This document shows positions 374 through 63,176 of a stretch of 64,000 nucleotides of DNA, piece by piece (positions within the stretch are counted from its first letter, which is position 1; every line of letters begins with the position of its first letter). Origin of the DNA: an uncultured Anaerolineales bacterium (lineage in GTDB: Bacteria; Chloroflexota; Anaerolineae; Anaerolineales; UBA6663); contig CAZSNP010000002.1 in NCBI GenBank assembly GCA_964608265.1, forward strand, positions 41,387 to 105,386. Direction: 5' to 3'. The position numbers and the translations under genes were made by a program. The notes beneath the pieces were generated by a model that made no database searches, was not told the origin of the DNA, and worked only from the letters and a program-made list of their open reading frames with translations.

Positions 374-3300
374 TCAGTAGTCGCCGGCGAAGGTCTCCGA
401 CCACGCCATCACGCGGATGGCGTCGGCCCCCACCAACGCCTCCAGCTTGCGGCGCGCTTCGGCGGTGAAGGCGATGCGGTCGTTGGGGAAGCGCAACTGC
501 TGCTCGCGCTCCGCTTCGTGGATGACGAACTCGAACTCATCCGGCCCACGCTGGCGCGTGAGCACGCGGTACACGGCCTGCAATCGCTTGCGGTCTTTGA
601 GCGGATCGCCGCTCGCGGTCAGGGTGACGATCACCCGTTGCCACTGCGTGGAGGTGGTTTGTGGGGCCGGGCGCGGGTGGGCGCCGTTCCCGTTGCGGAG
701 GCCATTGCCTGTGGCAACGTTTGCGCTTGCCGGGGCAACTACAACCGGAGCTTCTGCCGCCGGGGAACCGTTGGTCGCCGAGGCCGCCACTTCCTTCACG
801 GCAACATTCGTTGCCGCCAGTGGCTGCGGTGCGCGACCGATCGGTGCGACGTTGGCCGGCTGCATGAATTCCTCATCGTACGGCACATCATCCGGCGGGG
901 GCGGCACGTAGCCGCGCGGCAGCGGCGCGTCATCCGGGGGCAACGGCGCCACGTCGTCGGGCGTGAACATAGTGGCTTGCACCGGCGCGGGGCGCGGGGC
1001 GGGAGCATTCGCCATCTTGAAATCCTGCCGCAGCGAGTCCACCAGAATCTTCGGCGTTCCCCCGGCCGCATCCACCTTGCCGTAGATGACGACGATCTGC
1101 TCGGCCGCCAGCCAGCGGCTGACCTCGCGCCACGTCTTCGGGAAGATGACGAGGTCGAGCGAACCCTGCACATCCTCCACGGTGACGAAGCCCATCGGGT
1201 CGCCCTTCTTCGTGGTGTGCGTGCGGAGGTGGGTGACGACGCCGGCCATCGTCACCGGCTTGCCGTGGTCGTCGGCGCCGAGTTGCGCGCTGGTGTGGGT
1301 GATGACTCCCCCGAGTTGCTCCATCACCGGCTGCAACGGGTGTGCGCTGACGTACAGCCCGATCAACTCCTTTTCCCACCTGAGTTGTTCGCGCTGCGTC
1401 ACGACCACCTTGACCCGCGGCAACTGCACGCCGGTGAAGCCGCCGCCCCCGTCGAACAGCGTCATCTGCCCGGCCTCCGCCGCGCGGAAATGGGCGGCGC
1501 TGGCGTTCACGAACTGGTCGAGGCCTTCGAGCATCTGCCCGCGGTCGCCGAACCGATCGAGCGCGCCGACCTTGATCAGGCATTCGAGCGCGCGTTTGCC
1601 CACCGCGCGCAAATCGGTGCGCTGGCAGAAGTCGTCCAGCGAGGCGAACGGCCCGCCCGCGGCACGCGCGCCGAGGATGACCTGCACCGCGCCCTCGCCG
1701 ACATTTTTGATAGCGGCCATGCCGAAGCGAATGGCTGATGGCTGATTGCCCGCTTTCTGCCTTCCGCCGTCTGCCTCCTGCGCCTCTCTATCTTCAATCG
1801 AAAAATCCACCTGGCTGCGGTTCACATCCGGCGGCAGCACGGCGATGCCCATCGCTTTGCAGTCTTCGACGTACAGCGCCACCTTGTCCGTGTCACCGCG
1901 CGAGGCCGAGAGCACGGCGGTCATGTACTCCACCGGATAGTGCGCTTTGAGATAGGCCGTCTGCACCGAGATCACGCCGTAGTCGGCGGCGTGACTTTTG
2001 TTGAAGCCGTAACGCGCGAACTCCTCCCAATCGGCGAAGATGCCCTCGGCGGCGCTGGGCGGCATGCCCCTGGCCACCGCGCCTTTGATGAACTTCTCCT
2101 GATGTTTTTGCAGACTCTCTTTTTGCTTCTTGGCAATCGCCTTGCGCAGGTCATCGGACTCGCTCATGGTATAGCCGGCGAGTTCCACTGCCGCGCGCAT
2201 GATCTGTTCCTGATAGACCGGGATGCCGTAGGTCTCGTTGAAGATCGGTTCGAGCGAGGCGTGGCGATACTCCACCGGCTCCTCGCCGTGCATGCGCCGG
2301 ATGTAGCTGGGGATGAACTCCAGCGGGCCGGGCCGGTAGAGCGAGATCATGGCGATGATGTTGTCCAGATTCTTGGGCTTCATCTGCGTCAGATAACGCG
2401 TCATGCCCGTGCCTTCCACCTGGAACACACCCAGCGTCTGCCCCCGGCCCATCAACTCGAACGACCTGGGATCGTCCACCGGGATGTTGGTGAGGTCGAA
2501 CTTCACGCCGCGCCGCTGCTCGATGAGCTGGCAGGCGCGCTGCATGATCGTCAGCGTGATCAGCCCGAGGAAATCCACCTTGAGCATGCCGAGCTTTTCG
2601 AGGATGCCCATCTCGAACTGTGTCACCGTTTTGATCGGCGTGTCCTCGGCGTTGCTGGTCGGGCGGTGCAGCGGCAGGTATTCGAGGATGGGCTTGTCGG
2701 CGATGACGACGCCGGCGGCGTGCGTGCCGACGTTGCGCACCACGCCCTCCATCTGCGCGGCGGTGTCAATCAAATCGCGCGTCAGCGATTTGTCGAGCCG
2801 CTGCTCGCCGTTGACCTCCAGCCCGCGGCTGTAAATCTCCTTCAACTCGGGGACCTGTTCCAGGGCTTCGGGGATCGTGATCGGTTTGCCGGGGATGTTG
2901 GGGATTTTCTCGGCGATCTTGCCGACATCCCCAAGGGGGATGTCCATCACCCGGCCCACATCGCGGATGGCGGCGCGCGCGCCGAGCGTGCCGAAGGTGA
3001 TGATCTGCGCGACCTTGTCGCCCCCGTACTTCTGCACGCAATAGTCGAGCAGTTTGTAGCGCAGGTCGTCCTGAAAATCGAGGTCGATATCGGGCATGGA
3101 GACGCGGCCCGGATTGAGGAAGCGCTCGAAGATCAGGCCGTGGGCCAGCGGCTCGACGGTGGTGATGTCGAGCACGTAGGCGACGATGCTGCCGGCCGCC
3201 GAGCCGCGCGCGTTGTACCAGATGCCGTTGTTCAGCGCGTACCGGCACAGATCCCACACGATGAGGAAGTACGCGGCGAAGCCCATCTCGTTGATGACGC

Positions 3301-4279
3301 GCAATTCGTAATGCAGGCGCTCCTTCACTTCGCCGGAGTCGGCGCGCGAGCCATAGCGCCGGCGCAACCCCTCGGCGCACAAGTGGCGCAGATAGCTCTC
3401 GGCCGTCTCGCCCTCGGGCACCGGGAATTGCGGCAGGTGATAGCCCTTGGTCTTGAGGTTGACGTTGCAGCGTTCCGCAATCAGCAACGTGTTGCGGATG
3501 GCAGCCGGCACCTCGGCGAACAGTTCGCTCATCTCCTGCGGCGTGCGCAGATAGTAATCCTGCCCCGACATCCGCATCCGCTTGGGGTCTTTGAGCACGC
3601 AGCCGGTCTGGATGGCGAGCAGGATATCCTGCAGCCGCGCCTCCTCGGGCTGGATGTAGTGCACGTCGTTGGTGGCGATGAACTGCGCCTCGTAGCGCGG
3701 GCCTAACTCGAGCAGCGCCCGGTTCAGCGTGTGGATGGCGGGGATGTCGTGATGTTGCAGCTCGAGGAAGAAGCGGTCGTGGCCGAAGACCTCGTAATAC
3801 CAGTCGAGCTTGCGGCGCGCCTCGTCCGGCGCCCCGTCTTCGATGGCGCGCGGAATCTCCGACGCCATGCAGCCGCTGGTGCAGATCAGGCCTTCACTGT
3901 GCGCGGCGAGGAAGTCGCGGTCGATGCGCGGGTAGTAGTAGAAGCCTTCGAGTTGCGCCGCGCTGGCGATCTTGAGCAGGTTTTGGTAGCCGGTTTGATT
4001 TTCGGCCAGCAGCAACAAGTGATAGGGCTTCTTGTCTTTGACGGGGTCGCGGTCGGTCATGCCGCGCGGCGCGAGGTAGGCCTCCAGGCCGATGATGGGC
4101 CTGATGTCATTCTCGGTCGCGGCGCTGAAGAACTCGATGACGCCGTGCATCGTGCCGTGGTCGGTGATGGCCAGCGCCGGCATACCCAACTCTTTGGCGC
4201 GCTTGACCAGGCGCTTGATGTTGCTGAAGCCGTCGAGCAACGAGTACTCAGTGTGGCAGTGCAAGTGAGCGAAGGACAT
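374..4279 (-). CDS. dnaE: DNA polymerase III alpha subunit (PHP domain N-terminus, long C-terminal extension)
   Basis: 1301-aa ORF. N-terminus MSFAHLHCHTEYSLLDG (PHP), then the GFAAYFLIVWD, PDIDLDF, FGTLGARAAIRDVGR, LKVDFLGL and YRPGP blocks typical of DnaE. Confidence 0.95.
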   Translation of the reverse strand: MSFAHLHCHTEYSLLDGFSNIKRLVKRAKELGMPALAITDHGTMHGVIEFFSAATENDIRPIIGLEAYLAPRGMTDRDPVKDKKPYHLLLLAENQTGYQNLLKIASAAQLEGFYYYPRIDRDFLAAHSEGLICTSGCMASEIPRAIEDGAPDEARRKLDWYYEVFGHDRFFLELQHHDIPAIHTLNRALLELGPRYEAQFIATNDVHYIQPEEARLQDILLAIQTGCVLKDPKRMRMSGQDYYLRTPQEMSELFAEVPAAIRNTLLIAERCNVNLKTKGYHLPQFPVPEGETAESYLRHLCAEGLRRRYGSRADSGEVKERLHYELRVINEMGFAAYFLIVWDLCRYALNNGIWYNARGSAAGSIVAYVLDITTVEPLAHGLIFERFLNPGRVSMPDIDLDFQDDLRYKLLDYCVQKYGGDKVAQIITFGTLGARAAIRDVGRVMDIPLGDVGKIAEKIPNIPGKPITIPEALEQVPELKEIYSRGLEVNGEQRLDKSLTRDLIDTAAQMEGVVRNVGTHAAGVVIADKPILEYLPLHRPTSNAEDTPIKTVTQFEMGILEKLGMLKVDFLGLITLTIMQRACQLIEQRRGVKFDLTNIPVDDPRSFELMGRGQTLGVFQVEGTGMTRYLTQMKPKNLDNIIAMISLYRPGPLEFIPSYIRRMHGEEPVEYRHASLEPIFNETYGIPVYQEQIMRAAVELAGYTMSESDDLRKAIAKKQKESLQKHQEKFIKGAVARGMPPSAAEGIFADWEEFARYGFNKSHAADYGVISVQTAYLKAHYPVEYMTAVLSASRGDTDKVALYVEDCKAMGIAVLPPDVNRSQVDFSIEDREAQEADGGRQKAGNQPSAIRFGMAAIKNVGEGAVQVILGARAAGGPFASLDDFCQRTDLRAVGKRALECLIKVGALDRFGDRGQMLEGLDQFVNASAAHFRAAEAGQMTLFDGGGGFTGVQLPRVKVVVTQREQLRWEKELIGLYVSAHPLQPVMEQLGGVITHTSAQLGADDHGKPVTMAGVVTHLRTHTTKKGDPMGFVTVEDVQGSLDLVIFPKTWREVSRWLAAEQIVVIYGKVDAAGGTPKILVDSLRQDFKMANAPAPRPAPVQATMFTPDDVAPLPPDDAPLPRGYVPPPPDDVPYDEEFMQPANVAPIGRAPQPLAATNVAVKEVAASATNGSPAAEAPVVVAPASANVATGNGLRNGNGAHPRPAPQTTSTQWQRVIVTLTASGDPLKDRKRLQAVYRVLTRQRGPDEFEFVIHEAEREQQLRFPNDRIAFTAEARRKLEALVGADAIRVMAWSETFAGDY

Positions 4280-4285
4280 GCTGGA

Positions 4286-4291
4286 ACGATA
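4286..4291 (-). promoter_or_regulatory. -10-like box TATCGT, 6 nt upstream of dnaE ATG (leaderless geometry)
   Basis: Reverse strand reads TATCGT TCCAGC ATG. Confidence 0.3.
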
Positions 4292-4456
4292 CGTGACGAT
4301 TGGAAACAGGGTTTGTGAGGACGGCTGCGGATTATAGCACCGAGCCTTTTTGGCGCATCTTAATCTCTTCCGCTCATTTCTCTCAGCCTGCTCTCACCCG
4401 CGGCGGGCAAATTCTGTCCTATTCTTTTTTTGCACAGACGCGCGGAGATATTTGCA

Positions 4457-5248
4457 ATGAACAGGACTCTCCTCATCGCCGGCCTGGTCGGCGTGTTGGC
4501 CGTGGGCGGGCTGGGCGCGGCGGCGCTGTACAACTGGGTGCTTGGCCCCACGCTCGCGCCCAGCGCGCCGATCAGCGCCATCCCGCTGCAACTCGCAGGC
4601 ACGCCCACCCCCGCGCCCGTCATCCCGAACACCGCCGGCGAACCGACAGCCGCGCCGACGACGGCGGCCGCCCCGGCCCCAACCGCAGCCGCGATGGCCG
4701 CGCCCGCCGGCGGGCTGACGGTGTTTCAAATCAGCCAAGCCGAGTCGGAGGTGCGCTTCATCATCTTCGAGGAGCTGCGCGGCCAGCCGGTGGATGTGGT
4801 CGGCAAGAGCAATCAGGTGGCGGGCGAGTTGGCCGTGAACCCGGCGGAGCTGAGCAGCGCGCAGGTCGGCGTGATCCGGGTCAACGCGCGCACGCTGGTC
4901 ACCGATCAGGATCGGCGCAATCAGGCCATCCGCAATCGCATCCTCAACACCGACAGCTACGAGTTCATCACCTTCACCCCGACCGAGGTGCGCGGCCTCT
5001 CCGGCAGCGCCGCGCCGGGCGACACGCAGACGTTTCAACTCGCCGGTGACCTGACCATCCGCGATGTGACGAAGCCCGTCGTTTTCGACGTCACCGTCAC
5101 CGCCGAGGCCGCCGACCGGCTGAAGGGCAGCGCGCTGGCCACCATCACCTGGGCGGACTTCGGCCTCATCATCCCCGACGTCCCTTTCGTCGCCAACGTG
5201 GGCGACACGGTCAGGCTCGAATTGGATTTTGTGGCCCTGGCAAAATAG
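4457..5248 (+). CDS. YceI-like (polyisoprenoid-binding) family protein with N-terminal TM/signal and Ala/Pro linker
   Basis: ORF 4430..5248; preferred start is MNRTLLIAGLVGVLAV at 4457, preceded by GGAG. The body (SEVRFIIFEELRG...VAGEL...TDQDRRNQAIRNRILNTDSYEFITF...LAGDLTIRDVTKPVVFDV) matches the YceI pattern. Confidence 0.75.
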   Translation: MNRTLLIAGLVGVLAVGGLGAAALYNWVLGPTLAPSAPISAIPLQLAGTPTPAPVIPNTAGEPTAAPTTAAAPAPTAAAMAAPAGGLTVFQISQAESEVRFIIFEELRGQPVDVVGKSNQVAGELAVNPAELSSAQVGVIRVNARTLVTDQDRRNQAIRNRILNTDSYEFITFTPTEVRGLSGSAAPGDTQTFQLAGDLTIRDVTKPVVFDVTVTAEAADRLKGSALATITWADFGLIIPDVPFVANVGDTVRLELDFVALAK

Positions 5249-7250: not shown

Positions 7251-7714
7251 GGGCGAGGCAGCAGCGTGAAGACCAGCAGGCCGAGGCAGAGCAGCACAAT
7301 CACCACTGCCGCGACGACGAGCCACACCTTCACCGGGTCGGTCGGTTTGTCGCCGGCCACCGCGCCCGTCTGTCCATTCACCAGCACGCGGTACAAGCGG
7401 TCGCCGTAGCGATACGTCCCGATCCACAACGGCAGCAGCACGAGCTTGTACAGCTCGCCGGTGAAGGCATCGGTCGTCACTTCGACGTTACGCATCGCCG
7501 CGCCGCCCCGCGCTACCCGATCGCGCACCTGCGGGCAGGCGCGCTTCACCATCACCTCGCGCGCGCGCAGCGAGGCATCGGCCAGCGAAAGATCGTACTG
7601 CGCCATCGGCCAGTCGGCCACATACTCCGGCTTGAAGTGGATGAGCTGCTTCAAATCGAAGGCCGCCAGCCTGGCGAGCAAATCGGGCGGCAGCGCACGC
7701 GAGGCCGGCTGCAA
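7247..7714 (-). CDS. hypothetical protein with C-terminal TM anchor, translationally coupled to the PP2C gene; start uncertain (TTG)
   Basis: 155-aa ORF. Its stop overlaps the PP2C ATG (ATGA at 7247-7250). C-terminal hydrophobic helix VWLVVAAVVIVLLCLGLLVF. The first codon is TTG and no in-frame ATG/GTG occurs until MAQYD. Confidence 0.5.
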   Translation of the reverse strand: MQPASRALPPDLLARLAAFDLKQLIHFKPEYVADWPMAQYDLSLADASLRAREVMVKRACPQVRDRVARGGAAMRNVEVTTDAFTGELYKLVLLPLWIGTYRYGDRLYRVLVNGQTGAVAGDKPTDPVKVWLVVAAVVIVLLCLGLLVFTLLPRP

Positions 7715-7754
7715 TTGATCGGTGTCGGTCGAAGCTCATATCAAAATGTGGAGG

Positions 7755-7799
7755 GTGGAGCGTGGAGGGAAGGGTCCCGCTTCACCCGCCACGCTCCAC
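7755..7799 (-). terminator. hairpin with 11-bp perfect stem overlapping the mobA 3' end
   Basis: GTGGAGCGTGG (7755-7765) is the exact reverse complement of CCACGCTCCAC (7789-7799); 23-nt loop. It lies in a GTGGAGGG-rich tract. Confidence 0.3.
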
Positions 7800-8381
7800 T
7801 AATTTGCGCGCTGCCTCTAAATCAGCGGGCGTGTTCACGTTGAAGAACGACAGGTGTTGCGGGTCGAAGCGGTCGATCTCGGCCTCGTCCACAAAACGCA
7901 CGCGCACGTCGGGGAAGAAGCTGATGATCCGCATCTTGCCCGCCTCCAGCGCGGCGCGAATCGGCCCGAGGCAGGCGCGCGCGTAGATGGCGCGGAACGG
8001 CTCGGCCTCCTTGCCGAGGCGCGGCACAATCGCATCGCCCTCCGGGATGAGGGCGATCAAATACTCGAGCAGCGGCCTGACGACGAAAGGCATATCGCAC
8101 GCCACGCACAGGGTGTGCGGCTGCGACGAGTGATAGAGCGCGGTATAGATTCCGCCCAGCGCGCCTTTGTCGGGCAGCACATCGGCGAACGCCGGCAGGC
8201 CGAGGTAGGCGTAGTGCGCGGGCTGGTTGGTGATGAGGATCGTTTCGGTGCCGAGGCCGCGCACCTGGTCGAGGATGTCTTCGATGAGGGGCTTGCCCAG
8301 CAGGCGCACGAACGACTTATCCGTGCCCATGCGCGAGCTTTTCCCCCCGGCGAGGATGGCAACCGTCAGCGGCTCAGACAT
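7782..8381 (-). CDS. mobA: molybdenum cofactor guanylyltransferase
   Basis: MSEPLTVAILAGGKSSRMGTDKSF... (LAGG.S.RMG..K motif), ~200 aa. ATG at 8381 is supported by a TATAAT box 7 nt upstream. Confidence 0.8.
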   Translation of the reverse strand: MSEPLTVAILAGGKSSRMGTDKSFVRLLGKPLIEDILDQVRGLGTETILITNQPAHYAYLGLPAFADVLPDKGALGGIYTALYHSSQPHTLCVACDMPFVVRPLLEYLIALIPEGDAIVPRLGKEAEPFRAIYARACLGPIRAALEAGKMRIISFFPDVRVRFVDEAEIDRFDPQHLSFFNVNTPADLEAARKLVERGG

Positions 8382-8388
8382 GGGCCGG

Positions 8389-8416
8389 ATTATATCGGAG
8401 AGGGATGGCCTGTCGG
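8389..8416 (-). promoter_or_regulatory. putative sigma70-type promoter of mobA (leaderless geometry)
   Basis: Reverse strand: CCGACA - 16 nt - TATAAT - CCGGCCC - ATG. Confidence 0.35.
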
Positions 8417-8502
8417 GGGCCAAATCGGTTTGAAGACGCTATCCGACGAAAACTCCCTCGCCCATTCTCCGTTCTCCCCATTGCCCTCCCACGCGCAGCG
8501 GG

Positions 8503-8508
8503 TAAACT
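8503..8508 (+). promoter_or_regulatory. -10-like box TAAACT, 6 nt upstream of the ATP-grasp ATG
   Basis: TAAACT TGCGGC ATG(8515). Confidence 0.3.
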
Positions 8509-8514
8509 TGCGGC

Positions 8515-9960
8515 ATGGCCCCCGCCGTGCTGACGTCCCAATACGAACTCGGCCGCTTCTACGATGAGATGTTCGCGGCCCCGGCTCAGCCGCGCGCGCA
8601 TTACGGTGTGCTGCAAGATTATCTGCGCGGCATGACGGCCGAGTCGTTCGCCCAGCGCCGCCGCATGGCCGATGCGGCCTTCCTCGCGCAGGGCATCACC
8701 TTCACGGTGTATGGGCAGGCGGAGGGCCTCGAGCGCATCTTCCCCTTCGACCTCGTGCCGCGCATCATCCCGCAGGCCGAATGGCAGATGCTCGAGCGCG
8801 GCCTCATCCAGCGCGTCACCGCCCTCAATCACTTTCTGCACGACCTGTATCACGAGCAGCGTATCCTGCGCGCGCAGATCATCCCGAAGGAACTGGCCCT
8901 CAGCGCCACCCACTTCCGGCGCGAGATGGTGGGCCTCAATCCGCCGAAGGGCGTCTATGCCCACATCGTCGGCACCGACATCGTGCGCGGCGACGACGGC
9001 GCGTATTACGTGCTGGAGGACAACCTGCGCTCGCCGTCGGGCGTGAGCTACATGCTCGAAAACCGGCAGGTGATGAAGCGCACCTTCGCCGAGCTGTTCG
9101 CCCGTTACGGGGTCTTGCCCATCGAGCATTACCCGCAGGAACTGCTCAACACGCTGCGCTCGGTCGCGCCGCACGGCTACTCGGATGCGACCGTGGTGCT
9201 GCTCACGCCCGGCCAGCACAACTCGGCCTACTTCGAGCACACCTTCCTCGCGCGGCAGATGGGCATCGAGATAGTCGAGGGCCGCGACCTGGTGGCGCAC
9301 AACAACAAGATCTACATGCGCACCACGCGCGGCCTCAAGCTGGTGGATGTGATCTATCGCCGGATTGACGATGACTTCCTCGACCCGCTGGCCTTTCGCA
9401 AAGACAGCGTGCTGGGAGTGGCCGGCCTGCTCAACGCCTACCGCGCCGGCAACGTCACCCTGGCCAACGCCATCGGCACCGGCGTGGCCGACGACAAGGC
9501 CGTGTACGCCTTCGTGCCCGAGATGATCCGCTACTACCTCGGCGAGGATCCGATCCTCAACAACGTGCCCACATATCTGGGAATGCGGGACTCGGAGCGC
9601 GATCACATCCTGGCCAACCTCGACCAGCTCGTGGTGAAGGCGGTGAACGAGAGCGGGGGCTACGGCATGCTCGTCGGCCCGCATGCCTCGCAGGCCGAGC
9701 GCGAGGCGTTCCGCGAGCGGATCGCCCATAACCCGCGCAACTACATCGCCCAGCCCACCCTCGCCCTCAGCCGGCATCCCACGCTGCTCGAGGACGAGCT
9801 GTACGGTTGCCACATTGACCTGCGCCCGTACATCCTTTACGGCGAGAAGGTCGTGCTCGTGCCCGGCGGCCTGACGCGCGTGGCGCTGCGCAAAGGCTCG
9901 CTCGTCGTCAACTCCTCGCAGGGAGGCGGGAGCAAGGACACGTGGGTGTTGAGGGAATAA
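8515..9960 (+). CDS. circularly permuted type-2 ATP-grasp protein (COG2308 family)
   Basis: 481 aa. N-terminus ...YDEMF...PR.HY and the overall pattern ([53 protein letters not shown]) match this family. It sits in the conserved position before the alpha-E and transglutaminase genes. Confidence 0.85.
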
Positions 9961-9962
9961 GT

Positions 9963-9977
9963 GTGGAGGGAAGAGGG
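9963..9977. repeat. left arm of 15-bp perfect inverted repeat (inside 44-nt purine tract 9961-10004)
   Basis: GTGGAGGGAAGAGGG is the reverse complement of 10406-10420. Confidence 0.9.
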
Positions 9978-10004
9978 AAGAGGGAGGAGGGAGGAGGGAG
10001 ACGT

Positions 10005-10397
10005 ATGGCAACGATAAAGGACTATCGCGAGTTGCGGGTGTATCAAGTGGCGTTTGAAGCTGCCATCGAGGTATATGAATTGACGAAGACGTTTCCCATT
10101 GAAGAACGCTACAGCCTGACCGATCAAATCCGGCGGGCATCACGTTCTGTGTGCGCCAACATTGCCGAAGCCTGGCGCAAGCGGCGCTATCCGCAGCATT
10201 TCGTCAGCAAGCTCAGCGACGCCGACGCCGAAGCGGCTGAAACAATCGTCTGGCTCGACTTTGCCTTGCGTTTCAACTTCCTTTCGCCCGAACGGCATCA
10301 GGAATTGCAGGGCCGCTACAACCAAATCTGTGCTCAACTCACAGTCATGATGTCGAGCCCTGGGCAGTGGGCCTATAAATCATCCTCACGTTCATAA
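10005..10397 (+). CDS. four-helix-bundle protein (23S rRNA intervening-sequence protein / Avd family, PF05635-like)
   Basis: MATIKDYRELRVYQVAFEAAIEVYELTKTFP.EERYSLTDQIRRASRSVCANIAEAW.. is the family signature. GGAGGGAG SD lies 5 nt upstream of ATG 10005. Confidence 0.85.
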   Translation: MATIKDYRELRVYQVAFEAAIEVYELTKTFPIEERYSLTDQIRRASRSVCANIAEAWRKRRYPQHFVSKLSDADAEAAETIVWLDFALRFNFLSPERHQELQGRYNQICAQLTVMMSSPGQWAYKSSSRS

Positions 10398-10405
10398 TCC
10401 CTCCA

Positions 10406-10420
10406 CCCTCTTCCCTCCAC
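10406..10420. repeat. right arm of 15-bp perfect inverted repeat (inside 30-nt pyrimidine tract 10398-10427)
   Basis: CCCTCTTCCCTCCAC is the reverse complement of 9963-9977. Confidence 0.9.
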
Positions 10421-10427
10421 CCTCCTC

Positions 10428-11417
10428 ATGCTTTCCAGAGTCGCCGAATCCCTCTTCTGGCTGGCCCGCTACATCGAACGGGCGGAGGACATCACGCGCT
10501 TGCTGGCCGTCAACTTCAACGCGCTACTCGACGTGCATCCGCTGGCGGCGCAACGCGGCTGGCAGCCGGTGGTGGCGATGACGGGCGACGAGGCGCTGTT
10601 CGCCGAAGTCTACGGCGCAGCTGACGCGCAGCACGCGATTGAGTTCCTGTTGTGGCATCCCCTCAACCCCAACGCCGTCACCGCCTGCATCACCCGCGCC
10701 CGCGAGAACGCGCGCGGCGTGCGCGAGCAGATCAGCAGCGAGATGTGGGAGCAGCTCAACCGGCTGTATTTCCTGGTGAAGGACGCCGACCGCGCGGCGG
10801 TGCTGCGCAGCCCCAACGAGTTCTTTCAACAGGTGCGCGACGGCTCGCAGGCCTTTCAGGGCATCACGCTGGCGACGATGACGCACAGCGAGCCGTACGA
10901 ATTCATCCGCCTCGGCACGCACCTCGAGCGGGCCGACAAGACCGTGCGCATCCTCGACGCCAGGTACGGCGATGTGCGCGGGCTGGCCGACTCGTCGGCG
11001 GATGCGGCGTTGCAACTCATCGCCCTGCTGCGCTCGTGCAGCGCCTTCGAGCCGTTCCGCCGCGCGCAGGGCTACAGCCTGCAAGCCGACCGGGTGATGG
11101 AGTTCCTGCTGCTCAATCGCGAGTTCCCGCGCGCCGTATTGTTCTGCGTCAACCGCAGCCTGCAATCGCTGGAGATGCTGGGCGAAACCCCGAGCCAACC
11201 GAAGGTGGAGCATCCGCGCCGCGTGCTGGGCCGGTTGAGCGCCGACCTTGAATATCTGGCCATCACGGAAGTGCTGGGTGATGAAATGGGTAAATTCCTC
11301 GACGGGCTCTTGTTGCGCCTCAACGCCGCCGGTGATAGCATCGTGCGCACGTACTTCAACACCAGCGTCATCCTGCCGGACGAGCGACCACGACAACAAC
11401 AGCAACAACAACAGTGA
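10428..11417 (+). CDS. alpha-E domain protein (COG2307 family), poly-Gln C-terminal tail
   Basis: [26 protein letters not shown] is the canonical alpha-E N-terminus. 329 aa, ending QQQQQQQ. Confidence 0.85.
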
Positions 11418-11483
11418 GGAATGAGAAGGGAGAAGAGAGGAGAGAGGAGGGTTTCATCCTCCCTCGTCCCTCCTCCCTCTTTC
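11416..11483. repeat. purine tract / TTTCAT / pyrimidine tract imperfect hairpin between the alpha-E and transglutaminase genes
   Basis: 11416-11451 is almost pure R and 11458-11483 almost pure Y. GGAGG 11446-11450 pairs with CCTCC 11458-11462. Confidence 0.6.
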
Positions 11484-11489
11484 GCACGT

Positions 11490-12284
11490 ATGCACCTGCG
11501 CATCGAGCACACCACCACCTTTACCTACGATCACCCCATCAGCGAGGCGTATACCGAGATGCGGTTGAAGCCGCTGGACGGGGATGGGCAGCGGTGCTCG
11601 CACTTCACCCTGCTGACCGAGCCGCGCGACGAAGTGCTGCAATACACCGACCGCTTCGGCAACGACGTGCGCCACTTCGACGTCATCCAGCCGCACACCA
11701 AACTGATGGTGGCGGCGGTGAGCGAAGTGCAAACGCCCGACGCCTTCGCGCCCGACGGGGCGCCGCTCTCCCCGCTCGATGAGTTCGACTACTTGATGGC
11801 GACGACGTACGCCCCGCTCAGCGGCGATCTGGCGCAGTTCGCCGCCGCGCGCGCGGTCAGCGGCGACCCGGGGGCCACGGCGCTCGCCCTGACGCACGCG
11901 CTGTTCGACTCGCTCAAATACGAAAAGGGCGCGACCGACGTGTACACGACGGCCGACAAAGCCCTCGCGCTTGGGCGCGGCGTGTGCCAGGATTTCGCCC
12001 ACATCCTGCTGGCCGCGTGCCGCAGCCAGGGCATCCCGGCGCGCTACGTCAGCGGCTATCTGTACAACAACGGCCGCACCGCCGCCTCGCACGCCTGGGT
12101 GGATGTGTACGTGGCCGGGCGCGGCTGGCTGTCGCTCGACCCGACGCATAACACGCTGCAAACAAACCATTACGTGCGCGTGGCCGTTGGCCGCGACTAC
12201 GCCGACGTGCCCCCCACGCGCGGCATCTTCAAGGGCAATGCCAAAGAGAAGATGGAGGTGGAAGTGAAAGTGACGGCAACGTGA
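11490..12284 (+). CDS. transglutaminase-like cysteine protease family protein (COG1305)
   Basis: [28 protein letters not shown] (Bact_transglu_N-like) plus the core [29 protein letters not shown]...HAWVDVY...GWLSLDPTH (Cys-His-Asp). Confidence 0.85.
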
Positions 12285-12286
12285 AG

Positions 12287-12471
12287 CAGGGCATGTGCAA
12301 AGTCCAAGCGATGCCGACGTTTCGCCCTCACCCCTGCCCTCTCCCGCTGGGAGAGGGAGTGATTCGCACCAGTGGAACGCCACTCCCAATCGTCAGGGCC
12401 GGCTCCCCTTCTCCCAGCGGGAGAAGGGGCCGGGGGATGAGGGCGGACTCGGCGACTTTGCACACGCCCTG
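12287..12471. mobile_element. MITE-like element, copy 1 (18-bp TIRs, two internal hairpins)
   Basis: Left end CAGGGCATGTGCAAAGTC (12287-12304) versus the reverse complement of the right end GACTTTGCACACGCCCTG (12454-12471): 17/18. Inner inverted pair CGCCCTCACCCC / GGGGATGAGGGCG. Hairpins CCCTCTCCC-GCTG-GGGAGAGGG and CCCCTTCTCCC-AGC-GGGAGAAGGGG. Confidence 0.65.
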
Positions 12472-12491
12472 CGCCTCCCGCCTCTCAACGC

Positions 12492-12497
12492 TATACT
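12492..12497 (+). promoter_or_regulatory. -10-like box TATACT, 7 nt upstream of priA ATG (leaderless geometry)
   Basis: TATACT TCCCGGC ATG(12505). Confidence 0.35.
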
Positions 12498-12504
12498 TCC
12501 CGGC

Positions 12505-15045
12505 ATGTACGCCGAGATCGCCGTCAACGTCGCCCACCTGAGCGGCACGTTTCACTACGAAATCCCCCGCGACCTTGAAAAACAGTTGCGGGCCGGCCAC
12601 CTCGTCACCGTGCCGTTCAGCGGGCGCGAGGCGCAGGGCGTCGTCGTCGCGTTGAGCGATGAGTCGCCCGTCGACGGCGTTCCCAGGGAACGCGTCAAGC
12701 CCGTCATCGGTCTCGTTGATCCCGAGCCGGCCCTCACCCGCGCGCAGCTCGACCTCGCCTATTGGATCGCGCACACCTACCTCGTCTCACTCATCGACGC
12801 GCTCACCCTCATGCTGCCGCCCGGCCTGAGCAAACAGGCCGAGGTGGTGTATTCGCTCGTGGACGGCGAGCTTGCAGCGGACGCTCCAGCGACGACCGCT
12901 AAAGCGGCCACTACCAACAATCTCCAGTCATCGCTTCTCAATCTTCTGAAAGAACGCGGCGCCCTTCGTTCGCGCCAGCTCGACCGGGCGTTTCCGAAGC
13001 AGAAGTGGCGGCCGGTCGCCGAAGCGCTCGTGCGGCGCGGCGTGCTGAGCAAGCACAGCCGCTTGGAGCCGCCCTCGGTGCATGCCAAGCAAGTGAAGAC
13101 CGCGCGCCTCATCGCCAGCGTGCCGCAGCTCGAGGCGGTGCGCGGCTCGCTCTCGCGCTCGGCAGCCAAGGCCAAACGTTTGCAAGCCGCGCTCGATTTT
13201 CTGGGCCGTGAGGCTAAGCCGGTGGAGGTGCCGTGGGTGTACGCGGCCTCGGGCTGCGACCTGCAGGACCTGCGCGACCTGGCCGAGATGGAACTCGTTG
13301 ACCTGGGCGAGGCCGAGGTGTGGCGCGACCCGCTGGCCGGCAAGGAGTTCGTGCCCGACAGCGCCCCGCCGCTCACCGACGATCAACAGCGTGTGTGGGA
13401 CGCCGTGCGCTCCTCCCTCCACTCCCCCCCTTCCACAATTTTGCTGCACGGCGTCACCGGCTCGGGCAAGACCGAAATTTATCTGCGGGCGCTGGAGGAA
13501 GCGCTGAAGCAGGGCAAGCGCGCGCTGGTGCTTGTGCCCGAGATCGCGCTCACGCCGCAGACGGTGCGCCGGTTCGCCGCGCGCTTCCCCGGCCGCGTGG
13601 CGGTGTGGCACAGTGAACTCGGCGAGGGCGAGCGTTACGACACCTGGCGGCGCGCGCGTTCGGGATTGGTGGACATCGTCATCGGCGCGCGCAGCGCGTT
13701 GTTCGCGCCGCTGCCCGACCTCGGCGTGATCGTGCTGGACGAGGAGCACGACGAGGCCTACAAGCAGGATCCGCCGCAGAGCGTGCCCTATCACGCGCGC
13801 GAGGCGGCGATTGAGTATGCCGGGCAGCTCGGCGCGGTGTGCCTGCTCGGCTCGGCCACGCCGGATGTGGTGACGTTCCATCGCGCGCGGCGCGGCGCGT
13901 ACACCTTGCTCGAACTGCCGCTGCGCATCATGGGCCACGCGCGCAAACTCGAGGAGCAGGCCGAACGGTTCCACGTCGCCTCGCGCTATCACTCGCTCAG
14001 CGCCGAGACGCAGACGATCGATCTGCCGCCGGTCGAGATCGCCGACATGCGACACGAGTTGCGCATGGGCAACACCACGATGTTCAGCCGCAAGCTGCGC
14101 GACTATCTCGAAAACGCCATCGCGCAGAACGAGCAGGCCATCCTGTTCCTCAACCGGCGCGGCACTTCGACGTTTGTGTTCTGTCGCGATTGCGGCGAGG
14201 CGCTCAAGTGCCCGAACTGCGACACCACCCTCACCCATCACGGCTCGGCGCAACAACTGACCTGCCACCACTGCGGCCATCGCCAGCCGCAGCCGGAGCG
14301 TTGCCCGAACTGCCACAGCCCGCGCGTGAAGTTTTTTGGATTGGGCACCGAGAAGCTGGCCGAGGCGGTGACGGCGGAGTTCCCCGGCGCGACGGTGCTG
14401 CGCTGGGATCGCGATGCCACGCGGACGAAGGGCGCGCACGAACTCATCCTGCGCACGTTCAGCACGCAACAGGCCAACGTCCTCGTCGGCACGCAGATGA
14501 TTGCCAAGGGCCTCGATCTGCCGCTGGTGACGCTGGTGGGCGTGATCTCGGCGGATGTCGGGCTCGGGCTGCCCGATTACCGCGCCACCGAGCGGACGTT
14601 TCAATTGCTGACGCAGGTGGCCGGGCGCGCGGGCCGCGGCCTGCTGGGTGGCCGGGTGGTGTTGCAGACCTATCAGCCGGAGCATTACGTGATTCAGGCT
14701 GCGTCACAGCACGATTACGCCGGCTTCTACCAGCGCGAGATCGCCTACCGCAAAGACCTCGGCCTGCCGCCCTTCCGGCGCGTGATGCGGCTGCTCTATC
14801 GCCACGCCGATTACTCGCGGGCCGAGGCCGAGGCCAACGTCGTGGCGGCGCAACTGCGGCTGCGGGTGAAGGATGGCAAGCTGCTGAACACCGACGTCGC
14901 CGGCCCGGCCCCGGCCTTTTTCGGCAAGCTGGCCGGTGAGCATCGCTGGCAGATTATCGTGCGCGGCCCCGACCCGGCCGCCCTGGCGCGCGGGCTGCAA
15001 CTCAAAGGCTGGGTGGTGGATGTGGATCCGTTGAGCACGCTGTAA
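12505..15045 (+). CDS. priA: primosomal replication restart helicase PriA
   Basis: MYAEIAVNVA..GTFHYEIP start. Walker A GVTGSGKTE, DEEHD box, Cys-rich zinc region CRDCGEALKCPNCDTTLTHH...LTCHHCGH...CPNC. The track's upstream 70 codons lie in the MITE and are rejected. Confidence 0.9.
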   Translation: MYAEIAVNVAHLSGTFHYEIPRDLEKQLRAGHLVTVPFSGREAQGVVVALSDESPVDGVPRERVKPVIGLVDPEPALTRAQLDLAYWIAHTYLVSLIDALTLMLPPGLSKQAEVVYSLVDGELAADAPATTAKAATTNNLQSSLLNLLKERGALRSRQLDRAFPKQKWRPVAEALVRRGVLSKHSRLEPPSVHAKQVKTARLIASVPQLEAVRGSLSRSAAKAKRLQAALDFLGREAKPVEVPWVYAASGCDLQDLRDLAEMELVDLGEAEVWRDPLAGKEFVPDSAPPLTDDQQRVWDAVRSSLHSPPSTILLHGVTGSGKTEIYLRALEEALKQGKRALVLVPEIALTPQTVRRFAARFPGRVAVWHSELGEGERYDTWRRARSGLVDIVIGARSALFAPLPDLGVIVLDEEHDEAYKQDPPQSVPYHAREAAIEYAGQLGAVCLLGSATPDVVTFHRARRGAYTLLELPLRIMGHARKLEEQAERFHVASRYHSLSAETQTIDLPPVEIADMRHELRMGNTTMFSRKLRDYLENAIAQNEQAILFLNRRGTSTFVFCRDCGEALKCPNCDTTLTHHGSAQQLTCHHCGHRQPQPERCPNCHSPRVKFFGLGTEKLAEAVTAEFPGATVLRWDRDATRTKGAHELILRTFSTQQANVLVGTQMIAKGLDLPLVTLVGVISADVGLGLPDYRATERTFQLLTQVAGRAGRGLLGGRVVLQTYQPEHYVIQAASQHDYAGFYQREIAYRKDLGLPPFRRVMRLLYRHADYSRAEAEANVVAAQLRLRVKDGKLLNTDVAGPAPAFFGKLAGEHRWQIIVRGPDPAALARGLQLKGWVVDVDPLSTL

Positions 15046-24874: not shown

Positions 24875-24880
24875 GATTTG

Positions 24881-24948
24881 AACCACAAAGAACACGAAGG
24901 TTACAGAGTCTATCTGTATCCCTCGTGCTCTTTGTGTTCTTTGTGGTT
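24881..24948 (+). terminator. long hairpin downstream of the fusion gene (15-bp perfect stem)
   Basis: AACCACAAAGAACAC (24881-24895) / GTGTTCTTTGTGGTT (24934-24948). Confidence 0.45.
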
Positions 24949-25060
24949 AGCCTTCCGGCCGGCCTTCTCCGATAGCCGACTGACGCCTACCCGCCCGCTG
25001 CAACGCTCGGGCGCGCAGCGCGTAATACCGAGCAGACCGTCTGACTCAACTGGAGGCACT

Positions 25061-25363
25061 ATGTCTGCAATGTCACACGCCTGGCGGCACGAACTCCGCC
25101 ATTCACTGCGCCGCGCTTTCCGCCGCAACGGCCATCATCGCTCGCCGTTCGGCTGGCTGTTCTGGCTGCTCTTCCTGCCCTTCCGGCTGGTCTTCGGATT
25201 GGTCGGCTTCATCATCGGGCTGGTCGGGCGGCTGGTGGCGTTCATCCTCGGCGCGGTATTCGTCGTCGTCGGCGTGCTCGTCAGCCTGACCATCGTCGGG
25301 GCCATCATCGGCATCCCACTCGCATTGATCGGGTTGGTGATGATGGTCAAGGCGATCTTCTGA
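25061..25363 (+). CDS. small hydrophobic membrane protein (100 aa)
   Basis: GGAGG SD 5 nt before ATG 25061. Arg/His-rich N-terminus followed by ~3 TM helices. Confidence 0.55.
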   Translation: MSAMSHAWRHELRHSLRRAFRRNGHHRSPFGWLFWLLFLPFRLVFGLVGFIIGLVGRLVAFILGAVFVVVGVLVSLTIVGAIIGIPLALIGLVMMVKAIF

Positions 25364-25393
25364 TCGGCGATCTTCTGATCGGCGATCTTCTGA
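25351..25393. repeat. 15-bp tandem repeat x2.9 (GGCGATCTTCTGATC) spanning the stop codon of the small membrane protein
   Basis: Units at 25351-25365, 25366-25380 and 25381-25393; the stop TGA is at 25361-25363. Confidence 0.9.
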
Positions 25394-25395
25394 GC

Positions 25396-25509
25396 AAAAC
25401 GTGATGCGTGAAACGTGAGACTCGGTTGTGGCGAAGTTTCGACCATTGACCGAGTCAATGAACGACCACGCATCACGTTTCACGTTTCACGTTTTACGCA
25501 TCACGCATC

Positions 25510-25511
<2 letters not shown>
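25396..25511. repeat. heptamer-repeat inverted structure (CACGYWT units) with inner 8-bp hairpin
   Basis: Left: AAACGTG ATGCGTG AAACGTG. Right: CACGCAT CACGTTT CACGTTT CACGTTT TACGCAT CACGCAT. Inner pair GACTCGGT (25419-25426) / ACCGAGTC (25449-25456). Confidence 0.8.
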
Positions 25512-27189
<1,678 letters not shown>

Positions 27190-62015: not shown

Positions 62016-63176
62016 TCAATCGGCATTTTGGCCCATCACAAACCGATACATGTCTACCGTTTGTTCAGCGATGCGGCGCTGGGTGAAGAGCGCCAGCACC
62101 CGGGCGCGCCCGGCGGCCGAAAGCTGAGCCCGCCGCTCCGCATTGCGCTGAAGGAGGCGCAGTTGGGCCGCGAGCGTTTCGACGTGTTCTTCCGGGAAGG
62201 TCAGGCCGGCCGCGCCGATGACGTTGGGGATCTCGCCGCACGTGGAGCCGACCACCGGCACGCCGCAGGCCATCGCCTCGATGAGCACGCGCCCGAATTG
62301 TTCCTTCCAGTTGGGCCGCGTGCGCGAGGGCAGCACGAGGCAATCGAGTCGCGAGTAGAACTCGGGCATAGCGGTCGAGGGCAGAGGTCGCTCAATCACG
62401 GCCCGCTCGCGCAACCCGTGTTGTGCGATGAGATGTTCGAGCAATCCATGTTCCGGCCCCGAACCGAGAATCCGCACCCGCACTTCGGGAACCTGTGCGG
62501 CGGCGAGCAGCAATATCTCCACACCCTTTTCGGGCACGAGGCGGCCGGCATAACCTGCGGTGAAGGGATGAGGGGACGATGTGACGGGGTGACGGGGTGA
62601 CGTCACCTCGCCACCTGTCACCCCGTCACTGTCTCGCCCGGATGTTGGCTTGAAGAGTTCCGGGTCGACACCGAACTGCGGGATGACGCGCACCGGCCCG
62701 CGATAGCCCTTCGCCCGCCACAGGGCTTCGGAATCCGCATTGCCCACGATAGCCGCGTCGGCCCGGTCGAGCACGGAGCGCTCTATCCAATTGAACGGTG
62801 GTGGGTAGCGCCGGTGCAGGTTCTGCCACGAGAAGAACAAAGCTTTCGCACCGTGCCGCTTTGCTGAACGCAACGCCAGCCACGTCGCCAGGTTGTACGG
62901 CTCCTCATCAATGTGAACGAGGTCGGGCTTCCAACGCGCTACTAACTCAGCGAAGCGCGGATAGAAGTGAAGATGAAAGTTGCCGTTGAAGAGGATGGGC
63001 GTCTCGATCAGAGCGTAGCCGTTCATGTGGGCGCGTTCGAGCGTTTGCACACCGCGCTCGTCGCGCCATTCGGGCGGCACAACCACCGTCAGCTCGACGC
63101 CGAGTGACGCGATCTCCTCCAGCTTGCGCTGGTACGCGCCGACGACGCACGCCTTGGAAAGCATGAGCACCCGCAT
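62016..63176 (-). CDS. glycosyltransferase family 4 (GT-B) carrying an in-frame repeat-derived insertion in the interdomain linker
   Basis: MRVLMLSKACVVGAYQRKLEEIA start. C-terminal GRLVPEKGVEILL...PS....WKEQFGRVLIEAMACGVPVVGS. Linker peptide SGRDSDGVTGGEVTSPRHPVTSSPHP is encoded by GTGACGGG repeats. Confidence 0.8.
   Translation of the reverse strand: MRVLMLSKACVVGAYQRKLEEIASLGVELTVVVPPEWRDERGVQTLERAHMNGYALIETPILFNGNFHLHFYPRFAELVARWKPDLVHIDEEPYNLATWLALRSAKRHGAKALFFSWQNLHRRYPPPFNWIERSVLDRADAAIVGNADSEALWRAKGYRGPVRVIPQFGVDPELFKPTSGRDSDGVTGGEVTSPRHPVTSSPHPFTAGYAGRLVPEKGVEILLLAAAQVPEVRVRILGSGPEHGLLEHLIAQHGLRERAVIERPLPSTAMPEFYSRLDCLVLPSRTRPNWKEQFGRVLIEAMACGVPVVGSTCGEIPNVIGAAGLTFPEEHVETLAAQLRLLQRNAERRAQLSAAGRARVLALFTQRRIAEQTVDMYRFVMGQNAD
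62581..62629. repeat. GTGACGGG tandem units with inverted partner inside the GT4 coding sequence
   Basis: GTGACGGG GTGACGGG GTGACG ... GTCACCCCGTCAC, which is the reverse complement of GTGACGGGGTGAC. Confidence 0.8.

Follow-up and report, generated by a model that had tools for sequence, protein, structure and literature searches.

A 467-nt segment at positions 9961-10427 of the DNA analyzed here, a 64,000-nt stretch from an uncultured Anaerolineales bacterium (hereafter the window, at its full length), appears to be a cassette of the intervening-sequence (IVS) type known from rRNA genes: a conserved gene for a four-helix-bundle (4HB) protein occupies the loop, about 400 nt long, of a long hairpin, and the whole fills the entire gap from the stop codon of an ATP-grasp gene to the ATG of an alpha-E gene. 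We give this reading a probability of about 0.7. The prior view has been that IVSs are an oddity of rRNA genes, and the protein family concerned, PF05635, carries the name "23S rRNA IVS proteins", function unknown. The element and its two host genes comprise:

8515-9960, plus strand: circularly permuted ATP-grasp gene (COG2308 type), the upstream host gene (PF14403, E = 4e-169).
9961-10004, plus strand: 5' arm, a purine-rich heptamer array (44 nt, 40/44 purine).
10005-10397, plus strand: 4HB gene of the 23S rRNA IVS protein family, 130 aa (ATG at 10005, TAA at 10395-10397).
10398-10427, plus strand: 3' arm, a pyrimidine-rich array complementary to the 5' arm (30 nt, 28/30 pyrimidine).
10428-11417, plus strand: alpha-E gene (COG2307 type), the downstream host gene, without a Shine-Dalgarno (SD) sequence (PF04168, E = 1e-91).

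The cassette leaves no room at either end: the ATP-grasp TAA (9958-9960) directly abuts it, and the 3' arm reaches the alpha-E ATG. The 5' arm is a tandem array of period 7 (GGGAAGA/GGGAGGA units, 5.1 copies by Tandem Repeats Finder), and the SD-like GGAGG of the 4HB gene lies within it. The 15-mer GTGGAGGGAAGAGGG (9963-9977) recurs as its exact reverse complement at 10406-10420, and the full arms (9962-9992 and 10398-10428) are 31 nt long, 87% complementary and 405 nt apart. Exact inverted 15-mer pairs no more than 700 nt apart number 9 in the window, compared with a mean of 0.33 and a maximum of 3 in Markov simulations, and the cassette arms form the second-longest inverted repeat of that span in the 64 kb. 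The minimum free energy (MFE) fold of 9940-10450 pairs the purine tract with the pyrimidine tract (z = -3.7), while each arm folded alone is unstructured. A promoter and terminator scan of 7600-12700 found no plus-strand promoter-like or terminator-like site in the interior of the cassette; the lone signal there is a weak minus-strand terminator-like match (10344-10328) within the 4HB open reading frame (ORF), and the counts of such matches are those expected by chance. No Rfam family matched anywhere in the window at gathering thresholds, and no rRNA was found. The initial annotation of this DNA had already located both tracts, the 4HB ORF and the alpha-E ATG correctly, and its 15/15 inverted pair is exact and extends to the 31-nt arms; the long-range stem that it anticipated appears in the MFE fold. 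Its "pure pyrimidine tract" is indeed present at 10398-10427 but is only nearly pure (28/30), two A's interrupting the pyrimidines.

We surveyed the ATP-grasp/alpha-E junction with the ATP-grasp protein as query and one genome per species, which returned 80 loci. In all 80 of these other species, alpha-E follows ATP-grasp with no 4HB gene between them. The four closest, all uncultured Chloroflexota/Anaerolineales with ATP-grasp identities of 76-80%, have gaps of 9-66 nt at the cassette-free junction, three of the four with a purine-rich SD-like run such as cgtgagTGAGGGACGatg; the 66-nt spacer, from a sister group (L022), holds a small ORF-less hairpin. Judged from these junctions, the outer ends of the arms of the window cassette coincide exactly with the boundaries of the inserted segment. 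Thus the ORF and its arms behave as one inserted cassette, as the initial annotation had supposed.

The cassette occurs at this junction only in the window organism and in one other lineage (L011/L012), where the order ATP-grasp, 4HB, alpha-E, transglutaminase, PriA is the same as in the window. A neighbor-joining tree of ATP-grasp and alpha-E places this lineage as sister to the window organism, with the cassette-free lineages branching outside, so that a single insertion in the common ancestor of the two carriers explains the distribution, and the insertion must be old. Comparison of the window organism with its sister lineage gives 70% identity for the 4HB orthologues (dN 0.28, dS saturated) and 74-81% for the neighboring genes, from which it follows that the cassette is old, has been passed on vertically, and has an ORF subject to purifying selection. 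The layout is the same in all 19 strain contigs that carry the exact 4HB protein. There is no strain-level empty site, the cassette being present in every contig with the identical ATP-grasp protein. The 5' arm varies in length among these contigs (37, 44, 65 or 79 nt), while the 3' arm is a constant 30 nt with one C/T single-nucleotide polymorphism. The word "mobile", used of the cassette in the initial annotation, is thus apt on the evolutionary time scale only: the element is fixed in all 19 strain contigs.

The same design recurs well beyond this operon. The five homologues of the 4HB protein examined first (65-75% identical) have tandem heptamers upstream (GCGTGGA, CGTGAAG and others) and the complement downstream, and they stand in unrelated contexts: tyrosyl/tryptophanyl-tRNA synthetase, CheB/R, and hexapeptide transferase/amidohydrolase genes. 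We then searched metagenomes with an alignment of 25 4HB sequences and recovered 80 more loci, 79 of them usable, whose flanks were compared by Smith-Waterman inverted-repeat scores and full MFE folds. A locus's own flanks score 41 on average, mismatched flanks taken from different loci 20, and a complement-only control for composition 21.5 (p about 2e-14, Wilcoxon), and 49 of the 79 loci exceed the 95th percentile of the control. In the MFE folds, the flanks pair over at least 15 bp in 62/69 loci (median 42 bp), whereas chimeras given a foreign downstream flank have a median of 20 bp paired. In 73/79 loci the arrays have a dominant period of 7 nt (22 loci), 8 nt (42 loci) or 9 nt (9 loci). 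The 4HB gene follows its upstream neighbor closely (median gap 67 nt after the upstream stop) and, by rough ORF calls, is co-directional with the upstream gene in about 61/66 loci and with the downstream gene in about 40/65. None of 87 related 4HB loci lies in rRNA (0/87, counting the 80 metagenome loci, copies on cyanobacterial plasmids and other Chloroflexota copies). The plasmid copies, found by tblastn in Nostoc and Leptolyngbya, have similar G-array and C-array flanks. An ORF in the loop of a long stem, as first proposed for the window alone, is therefore a design shared by most of the 79 related loci, all of them outside rRNA.

What is conserved among these loci is not the sequence of the arms. 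The 33 loci with at least three near-perfect repeat copies use 27 different repeat units, so that the conserved property is complementarity together with repeat structure. A miniature inverted-repeat or other terminal-inverted-repeat transposon was considered and rejected: arm sequences vary from locus to locus, and a target-site duplication is lacking, no direct duplication being found on the flanks of the window cassette. The arms do follow a G-first order, with G exceeding C in the upstream flank of 77/79 loci and C exceeding G in the downstream flank of 65/79. This order is a property of the hairpin and not of the orientation of the ORF, because a hairpin with a G-rich 5' arm is the same on both strands. 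As a speculation, with the G-rich arm transcribed first, a long C-rich tract that attracts Rho may never be exposed without its partner.

It is instructive to compare the window cassette with the ORF-containing IVSs that do reside in 23S rRNA, known for instance from Leptospira and Coxiella burnetii. A tblastn search of plasmids gave a 4HB match without an annotated coding sequence on plasmid AZO_p2 of Azospirillum lipoferum, and this match sits in a 23S rRNA gene (Rfam: LSU at 1792-4990; 4HB ORF at about 3001-3336). We take the insertion site to be helix 45, by comparison with the E. coli sequence. The arms of this IVS (CAGAGGA CGGATGA CAGAGGA CGGAGGA... and TCCGTCC TCTGTCT TCTGTCA TCCGTCT) are, as in the window, purine-rich heptamer arrays with their complement, 36 nt long, 86% complementary and 397 nt apart, in an IVS of about 469 nt. 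The IVS of Coxiella burnetii is 428-444 nt long with a 28-bp terminal stem, which RNase III cuts in the middle (PMC4990558). The window cassette, at 467 nt, agrees with both in size, encodes a member of the same protein family, and has the same plan: terminal inverted repeats form a stem of about 30 bp, within the range of about 25-35 bp expected of IVSs, and enclose a loop of about 400 nt with the ORF. Like an IVS, it is recognized as an insertion relative to uninterrupted homologous loci (80/80 cassette-free junctions).

The differences concern the host and its consequences. The window cassette lies between two protein-coding genes, in an mRNA spacer and not in 23S helix 9, 25 or 45; it replaces a translation-initiation spacer, and its excision is only putative. 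Its inheritance is also stable and its ORF is under selection; for the S23p protein of Coxiella, by contrast, expression is doubtful. Because the geometry of the Azospirillum IVS is nearly equal and the dimensions of the Coxiella IVS agree, the window element is an IVS in every tested respect except the host RNA, and we consider it probable that it and the rRNA IVSs are the same kind of element. To describe it as an IVS-type element that landed in an mRNA, in line with the initial annotation, is fair, given the 79 loci and a true 23S IVS of near-identical dimensions.

The identity of the encoded protein is clear. It matches PF05635 (E = 8e-32, 110 bits, cut-off 33.8) and TIGR02436 (E = 9e-30, 103 bits, cut-off 24), and is thus a member of the IVS protein family; it is identical across the 19 strain contigs. 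Its relatives in the PDB are 2GSC (E = 9e-12, the closest solved structure) and 2RLD, and structural relatives of the family form pentamers. No close relatives were found in viral contigs. The initial annotation had called the gene "Avd/IVS-type", Avd being the accessory protein of diversity-generating retroelements (DGRs). The window protein does share the four-helix-bundle fold with Avd, but it scores below the cut-offs of both Avd models (bAvd, 37.6 bits against 40; DivGenRetAVD, 38 against 80), gene calls for the 10 kb on each side of the gene include no reverse transcriptase, and neither a template repeat nor a variable repeat lies nearby. On the strength of the model scores and the missing reverse transcriptase, the Avd identity was rejected.

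It might still be asked whether the 4HB protein is a dedicated accessory of the ATP-grasp/alpha-E/transglutaminase system, or else a DGR Avd. Its conserved position in two lineages, the purifying selection on it and its weak similarity to bAvd all count in favor of this alternative. We regard this as very improbable, since the gene is absent from the junction in 80/80 other species and close paralogues adjoin tRNA synthetase, CheB/R, amidohydrolase, oxidoreductase and other unrelated genes, and the Avd results just given count against it as well. The 4HB protein is not part of this system: for those who study the operon, the message is that the 4HB gene is a passenger and not a fourth subunit.

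How such a cassette could be accommodated in an operon can be proposed from these features. It would have been inserted once, between the ATP-grasp stop and the alpha-E start, replacing a short SD-bearing spacer, and it would be transcribed as part of the operon mRNA, because it has no promoter or terminator of its own. The arms, individually unstructured, would then come together in a stem of about 30 bp. Judged by the stems of rRNA IVSs, it could plausibly serve RNase III as a substrate, and its length is suitable. RNase III cleavage, which the initial annotation had proposed as well, would leave the ATP-grasp and alpha-E parts of the transcript as separate mRNAs and set a 4HB mRNA free; going by the analogy with rRNA IVSs, its occurrence in vivo is possible, at a little below even odds. 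If the stem were left uncleaved, ribosomes terminating at the ATP-grasp and 4HB stops would melt it, because both stop codons abut the arms, and downstream genes without an SD sequence could then be read via coupling or reinitiation.

A different function was suggested in the initial annotation: pairing of the repeated SD-like GGAGG with a CCUCC tract of anti-SD type would let the stem gate translation of the 4HB and alpha-E genes. The local sequence lends itself to this. The 5' arm has five GGAGG or GAGGG motifs, among them one that precedes the 4HB ATG by 9-13 nt; the 3' arm runs as far as the alpha-E ATG; and the MFE fold sequesters both regions. Moreover, alpha-E lacks an SD sequence in the window and in the sister lineage, whereas a purine-rich SD-like run is present in three of the four nearest relatives without the cassette; in keeping with the initial annotation, the pyrimidine arm stands where the cassette-free relatives have their SD-bearing spacer. 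Nevertheless, SD likeness is not a property of the element, because the repeat units differ between loci: other cassettes use GCGTGGA, GGGCGAC, GACGCGG, GGGAGTGT and similar units (27 units in 33 loci), so that the SD/anti-SD reading is specific to the repeat unit of this one locus. The window organism also appears to make little use of SD sequences. An SD-like 4-mer lies at -20 to -4 in only 11/41 window genes (background 15%), the ATP-grasp and transglutaminase genes also lack one, and many window genes carry a TATAAT-like box about 7 nt before the ATG, as at PriA (12492-12497) and upstream of 8381, 57241 and 63176, with no SD. Boxes so close to the ATG indicate leaderless initiation, and the sequence suggests that this mode is widespread in the window organism, largely without SD. 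Because arms elsewhere are not SD-like and most window genes have no SD, the gate is probably incidental, and as a function of the stem we find it unlikely; the internal genes would more plausibly be read through termination-reinitiation.

Several observations weigh against the interpretation of the segment as an IVS-type cassette with its ORF in the loop. At L015/L016, L102 and L106, complete hairpins stand on both sides of the 4HB ORF, and at L182 (Oscillatoria nigro-viridis plasmid pOSC7112.02) the arrays are direct, not inverted; because of these loci, the ORF-in-loop geometry is common but not universal. The arms of the sister lineage are only about 70% complementary (inverted-repeat score 24). 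Hairpins of the same type as the cassette arms exist without an ORF, so that the arms need not have travelled with it. Among the non-Watson-Crick positions of the arms, G.U pairs number 133 and A.C mismatches 149; because G.U is not in excess over A.C, there is no signature of selection on a sense-RNA helix. Finally, slippage and DNA-level correction of quasipalindromes could by themselves maintain the complementarity.

Two of the exceptional loci have further structure. The hairpins at L015/L016 each consist of a G array followed by a C array, and the ORF lies both between the two hairpins and inside a possible long-range stem. At L182, the 4HB gene has long G-rich GAGAGGGG/GAGAGTGG arrays on both sides.

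The last of the points above leads to the alternative that complementarity is a property of the DNA: slippage would expand the arrays, template switching at quasipalindromes or recombination would keep the arms matched, and any function would lie in a cruciform, a G-quadruplex (G4), H-DNA, or homology for exchange of cassettes. Copy number does vary in one arm among strains, and the missing bias toward G.U is in keeping with this account. In the orthologous group L103, L105, L107, L108 and L109, a locus's own arms pair no better than swapped arms, so that orthologous cassettes give no indication of species-specific co-evolution of the arms. The window 5' arm is, in addition, a canonical G3N4 quadruplex motif, as are 22/79 upstream arms, and GGGAATC arrays form G4 in vitro (PMC4692102). 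However, the other 57/79 upstream arms have no such motif; the same design is found in rRNA, where the stem is a known RNA-level substrate of RNase III (PMC4990558); and the orientation of 4HB genes, nearly always that of the upstream gene, suggests that they depend on the host transcript. On balance, we think a purely DNA-level origin rather unlikely. As a general property of the arms, the G-quadruplex was rejected, the motif being present in only 22/79 loci.

The ORF-less hairpins bear on a second alternative. In the window they are found at four places:

7746-7800: ORF-less hairpin with GTGGAGG/GTGGAGC units, between two minus-strand genes (fold z = -3.9).
11418-11489, plus strand: ORF-less hairpin of a purine heptamer array, a UUUCA loop and a pyrimidine array (period-7 arrays, -33.4 kcal/mol).
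25391-25512: ORF-less hairpin with CGTGA-type units (fold z = -6.9).
About 62580-62640: ORF-less hairpin with GTGACGGG octamer units (fold z = -3.8).

The arms of the cassette could accordingly be generic short-tandem-repeat hairpins of operon spacers, similar to repetitive extragenic palindromic (REP) elements and separable from the 4HB gene, which would have landed in an existing loop or been swapped in by recombination between similar arms; the stem would then serve the host mRNA, through stability or insulation, and not the cassette. Besides the four hairpins just listed, this account draws support from the small ORF-less hairpin at the same site in the L022 junction, from strains that swap or insert ORF-less hairpins in two further spacers of the operon (described below), and from Xanthomonas, where 70-75 inverted pairs of GGGAATC arrays lie between operon genes (PMC4692102). 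Arrays outside cassettes are also 7- to 9-fold denser in 4HB-bearing contigs, at 18.6 per 100 kb compared with 2.1-2.6 in the ATP-grasp loci of other genomes, a comparison confounded by taxonomy. They often have the cassette's own repeat unit, and are more similar to the cassette arm of the contig on which they lie than to those of other contigs (20.8 vs 14.7, p = 0.005). The arms thus enclose the ORF, as the initial annotation had it, but they belong to a broader class of hairpins and are not unique to 4HB genes. On the other side, arms flank the 4HB gene in most of the 79 loci (49/79 above control; 62/69 pairing over at least 15 bp), they occur also in a 23S rRNA IVS, where host-mRNA functions do not apply, and their ends coincide with the limits of the inserted segment at the cassette-free junctions. 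We therefore regard generic hairpins as a possible but rather doubtful explanation, and retain the IVS-type cassette as the preferred one.

The cassette connects with published observations that had stood apart. In Xanthomonas, GGGAATC heptamer arrays form 70-75 convergent pairs with a spacing of 21-67 nt and unknown function, placed a few nt past stop codons between co-directional operon genes such as groES/EL, atpA/G and atpD/C; heptamer arrays occur in Nostoc as well, and array lengths are strain-variable (Rehm et al. 2015, PMC4692102). These G-rich heptamers in convergent pairs match the window hairpin at 11418-11489. The cassette arms themselves are such an inverted pair (period 7, 5.1 copies, array 1 nt past the stop, partner at 10398-10427), with the difference that the unit is GGGAGGA and not GGGAATC, and that the arms are 405 nt apart instead of 21-67 nt. 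The Xanthomonas study treats the arrays as G-quadruplex motifs, whereas the window pair encloses a gene. In its Table S2A, array no. 15 is placed 6 nt past accB (XCC0517), where it extends over the start annotated for XCC0516 (PMC4692102). XCC0516 is the 4HB protein of PDB 2GSC, and no link to 4HB genes is drawn in that paper.

Genes annotated as 23S rRNA intervening-sequence protein (IVP) have been described in cas operons, for example in the order cmr3, IVP, cmr2 in Pleurocapsa, and a Cas-related role was suggested for them (Zhang et al., PMC3936711). As in the window, a PF05635 gene stands there between co-directional genes of an unrelated operon. Flanking repeats were left out of consideration in that study, and the present results suggest that the cas-operon IVP genes are passenger cassettes. 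A third parallel is provided by REP/REPIN elements and their associated RAYT genes, in which, as here, dispersed intergenic hairpins accompany a gene flanked by inverted repeat copies. Unlike RAYT, the 4HB protein has no nuclease or transposase fold, and unlike REP elements, the hairpins have diverse repeat units and do not constitute one family.

These parallels invite a broader hypothesis, in which 4HB proteins and short-tandem-repeat hairpins form one system: the 4HB element would be the autonomous member, the ORF-less hairpins and ORF-less IVSs the non-autonomous ones, and the pentameric 4HB protein would bind, protect or propagate the arrays in the manner of RAYT. The hosts of this large family would be Chloroflexota, cyanobacteria, Xanthomonas and others, and the sites colonized would be rRNA helices and operon spacers. 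We consider the hypothesis, taken as a whole, unlikely. If true, it would explain the origin of rRNA IVSs, the function of a large uncharacterized protein family, and the heptamer excess in bacterial genomes.

Parts of this picture are already known: rRNA IVSs with a PF05635 ORF and an RNase III stem, scattered genes annotated as 'four helix bundle protein', and heptamer arrays and inverted pairs in Xanthomonas and cyanobacteria. In the full-text literature searched, which does not extend to most subscription journals, we found no description of IVS-type cassettes resident mainly in mRNA spacers, of short-tandem-repeat arms in both rRNA and mRNA cassettes, or of cassettes co-occurring with similar ORF-less hairpins. 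The results bear on each of these. For a large subfamily, the normal home is the spacer past the stop codon of a protein gene, often within an operon; the arms are G-rich tandem arrays of 7-9-nt units and their complement in rRNA and mRNA alike; and similar ORF-less hairpins accompany the cassettes. Three literatures are thereby joined, on rRNA IVSs, on heptamer-repeat excess and G4 arrays, and on "IVP genes in cas operons". The findings also caution against annotating 4HB genes by guilt of association, and they offer tractable systems for asking whether RNase III-processed cassettes fragment operon mRNAs.

Downstream of alpha-E, the operon continues with two further features:

11490-12284, plus strand: transglutaminase-like gene (PF01841 and PF08379).
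12285-12504, plus strand: structured transglutaminase-PriA spacer (IG4), with an outer stem of 12286-12304 and 12454-12472 (19 nt, 95% complementary).

Gene calls on identical contigs give the transglutaminase 264 aa with a start at 11490; a longer ORF from 11421, a mechanical call, reads through the hairpin at 11418-11489, and the start at 11490 is more likely. This hairpin fills the alpha-E/transglutaminase spacer (IG3), which is 72 or 100 nt long among strains, and in strain contig L008 it is replaced by an unrelated 112-nt hairpin element of the CGTGA type. Members of the CGTGA-type family are about 107-120 nt long, with arms of (NNCGTGA)n and (TCACGNN)n and diverged loops. In IG4, a 107-nt CGTGA-type element is present or absent among strains (L005-L009), the polymorphic copy being inserted directly 3' of the 3' arm of the outer stem. 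That stem encloses two small C-first hairpins, CCCTCTCCC-GCT-GGGAGAGGG and CTCCCCTTCTCCC-AGC-GGGAGAAGGGG, and a TATACT box (12492-12497) 7 nt before the PriA ATG suggests that the PriA start is leaderless. Elsewhere in the window, a perfect 15-nt tandem repeat, GGCGATCTTCTGATC (25351-25393, 2.9 copies), lies at the 3' end of ORF 24878-25363 and directly precedes the CGTGA-type hairpin element at 25391-25512.

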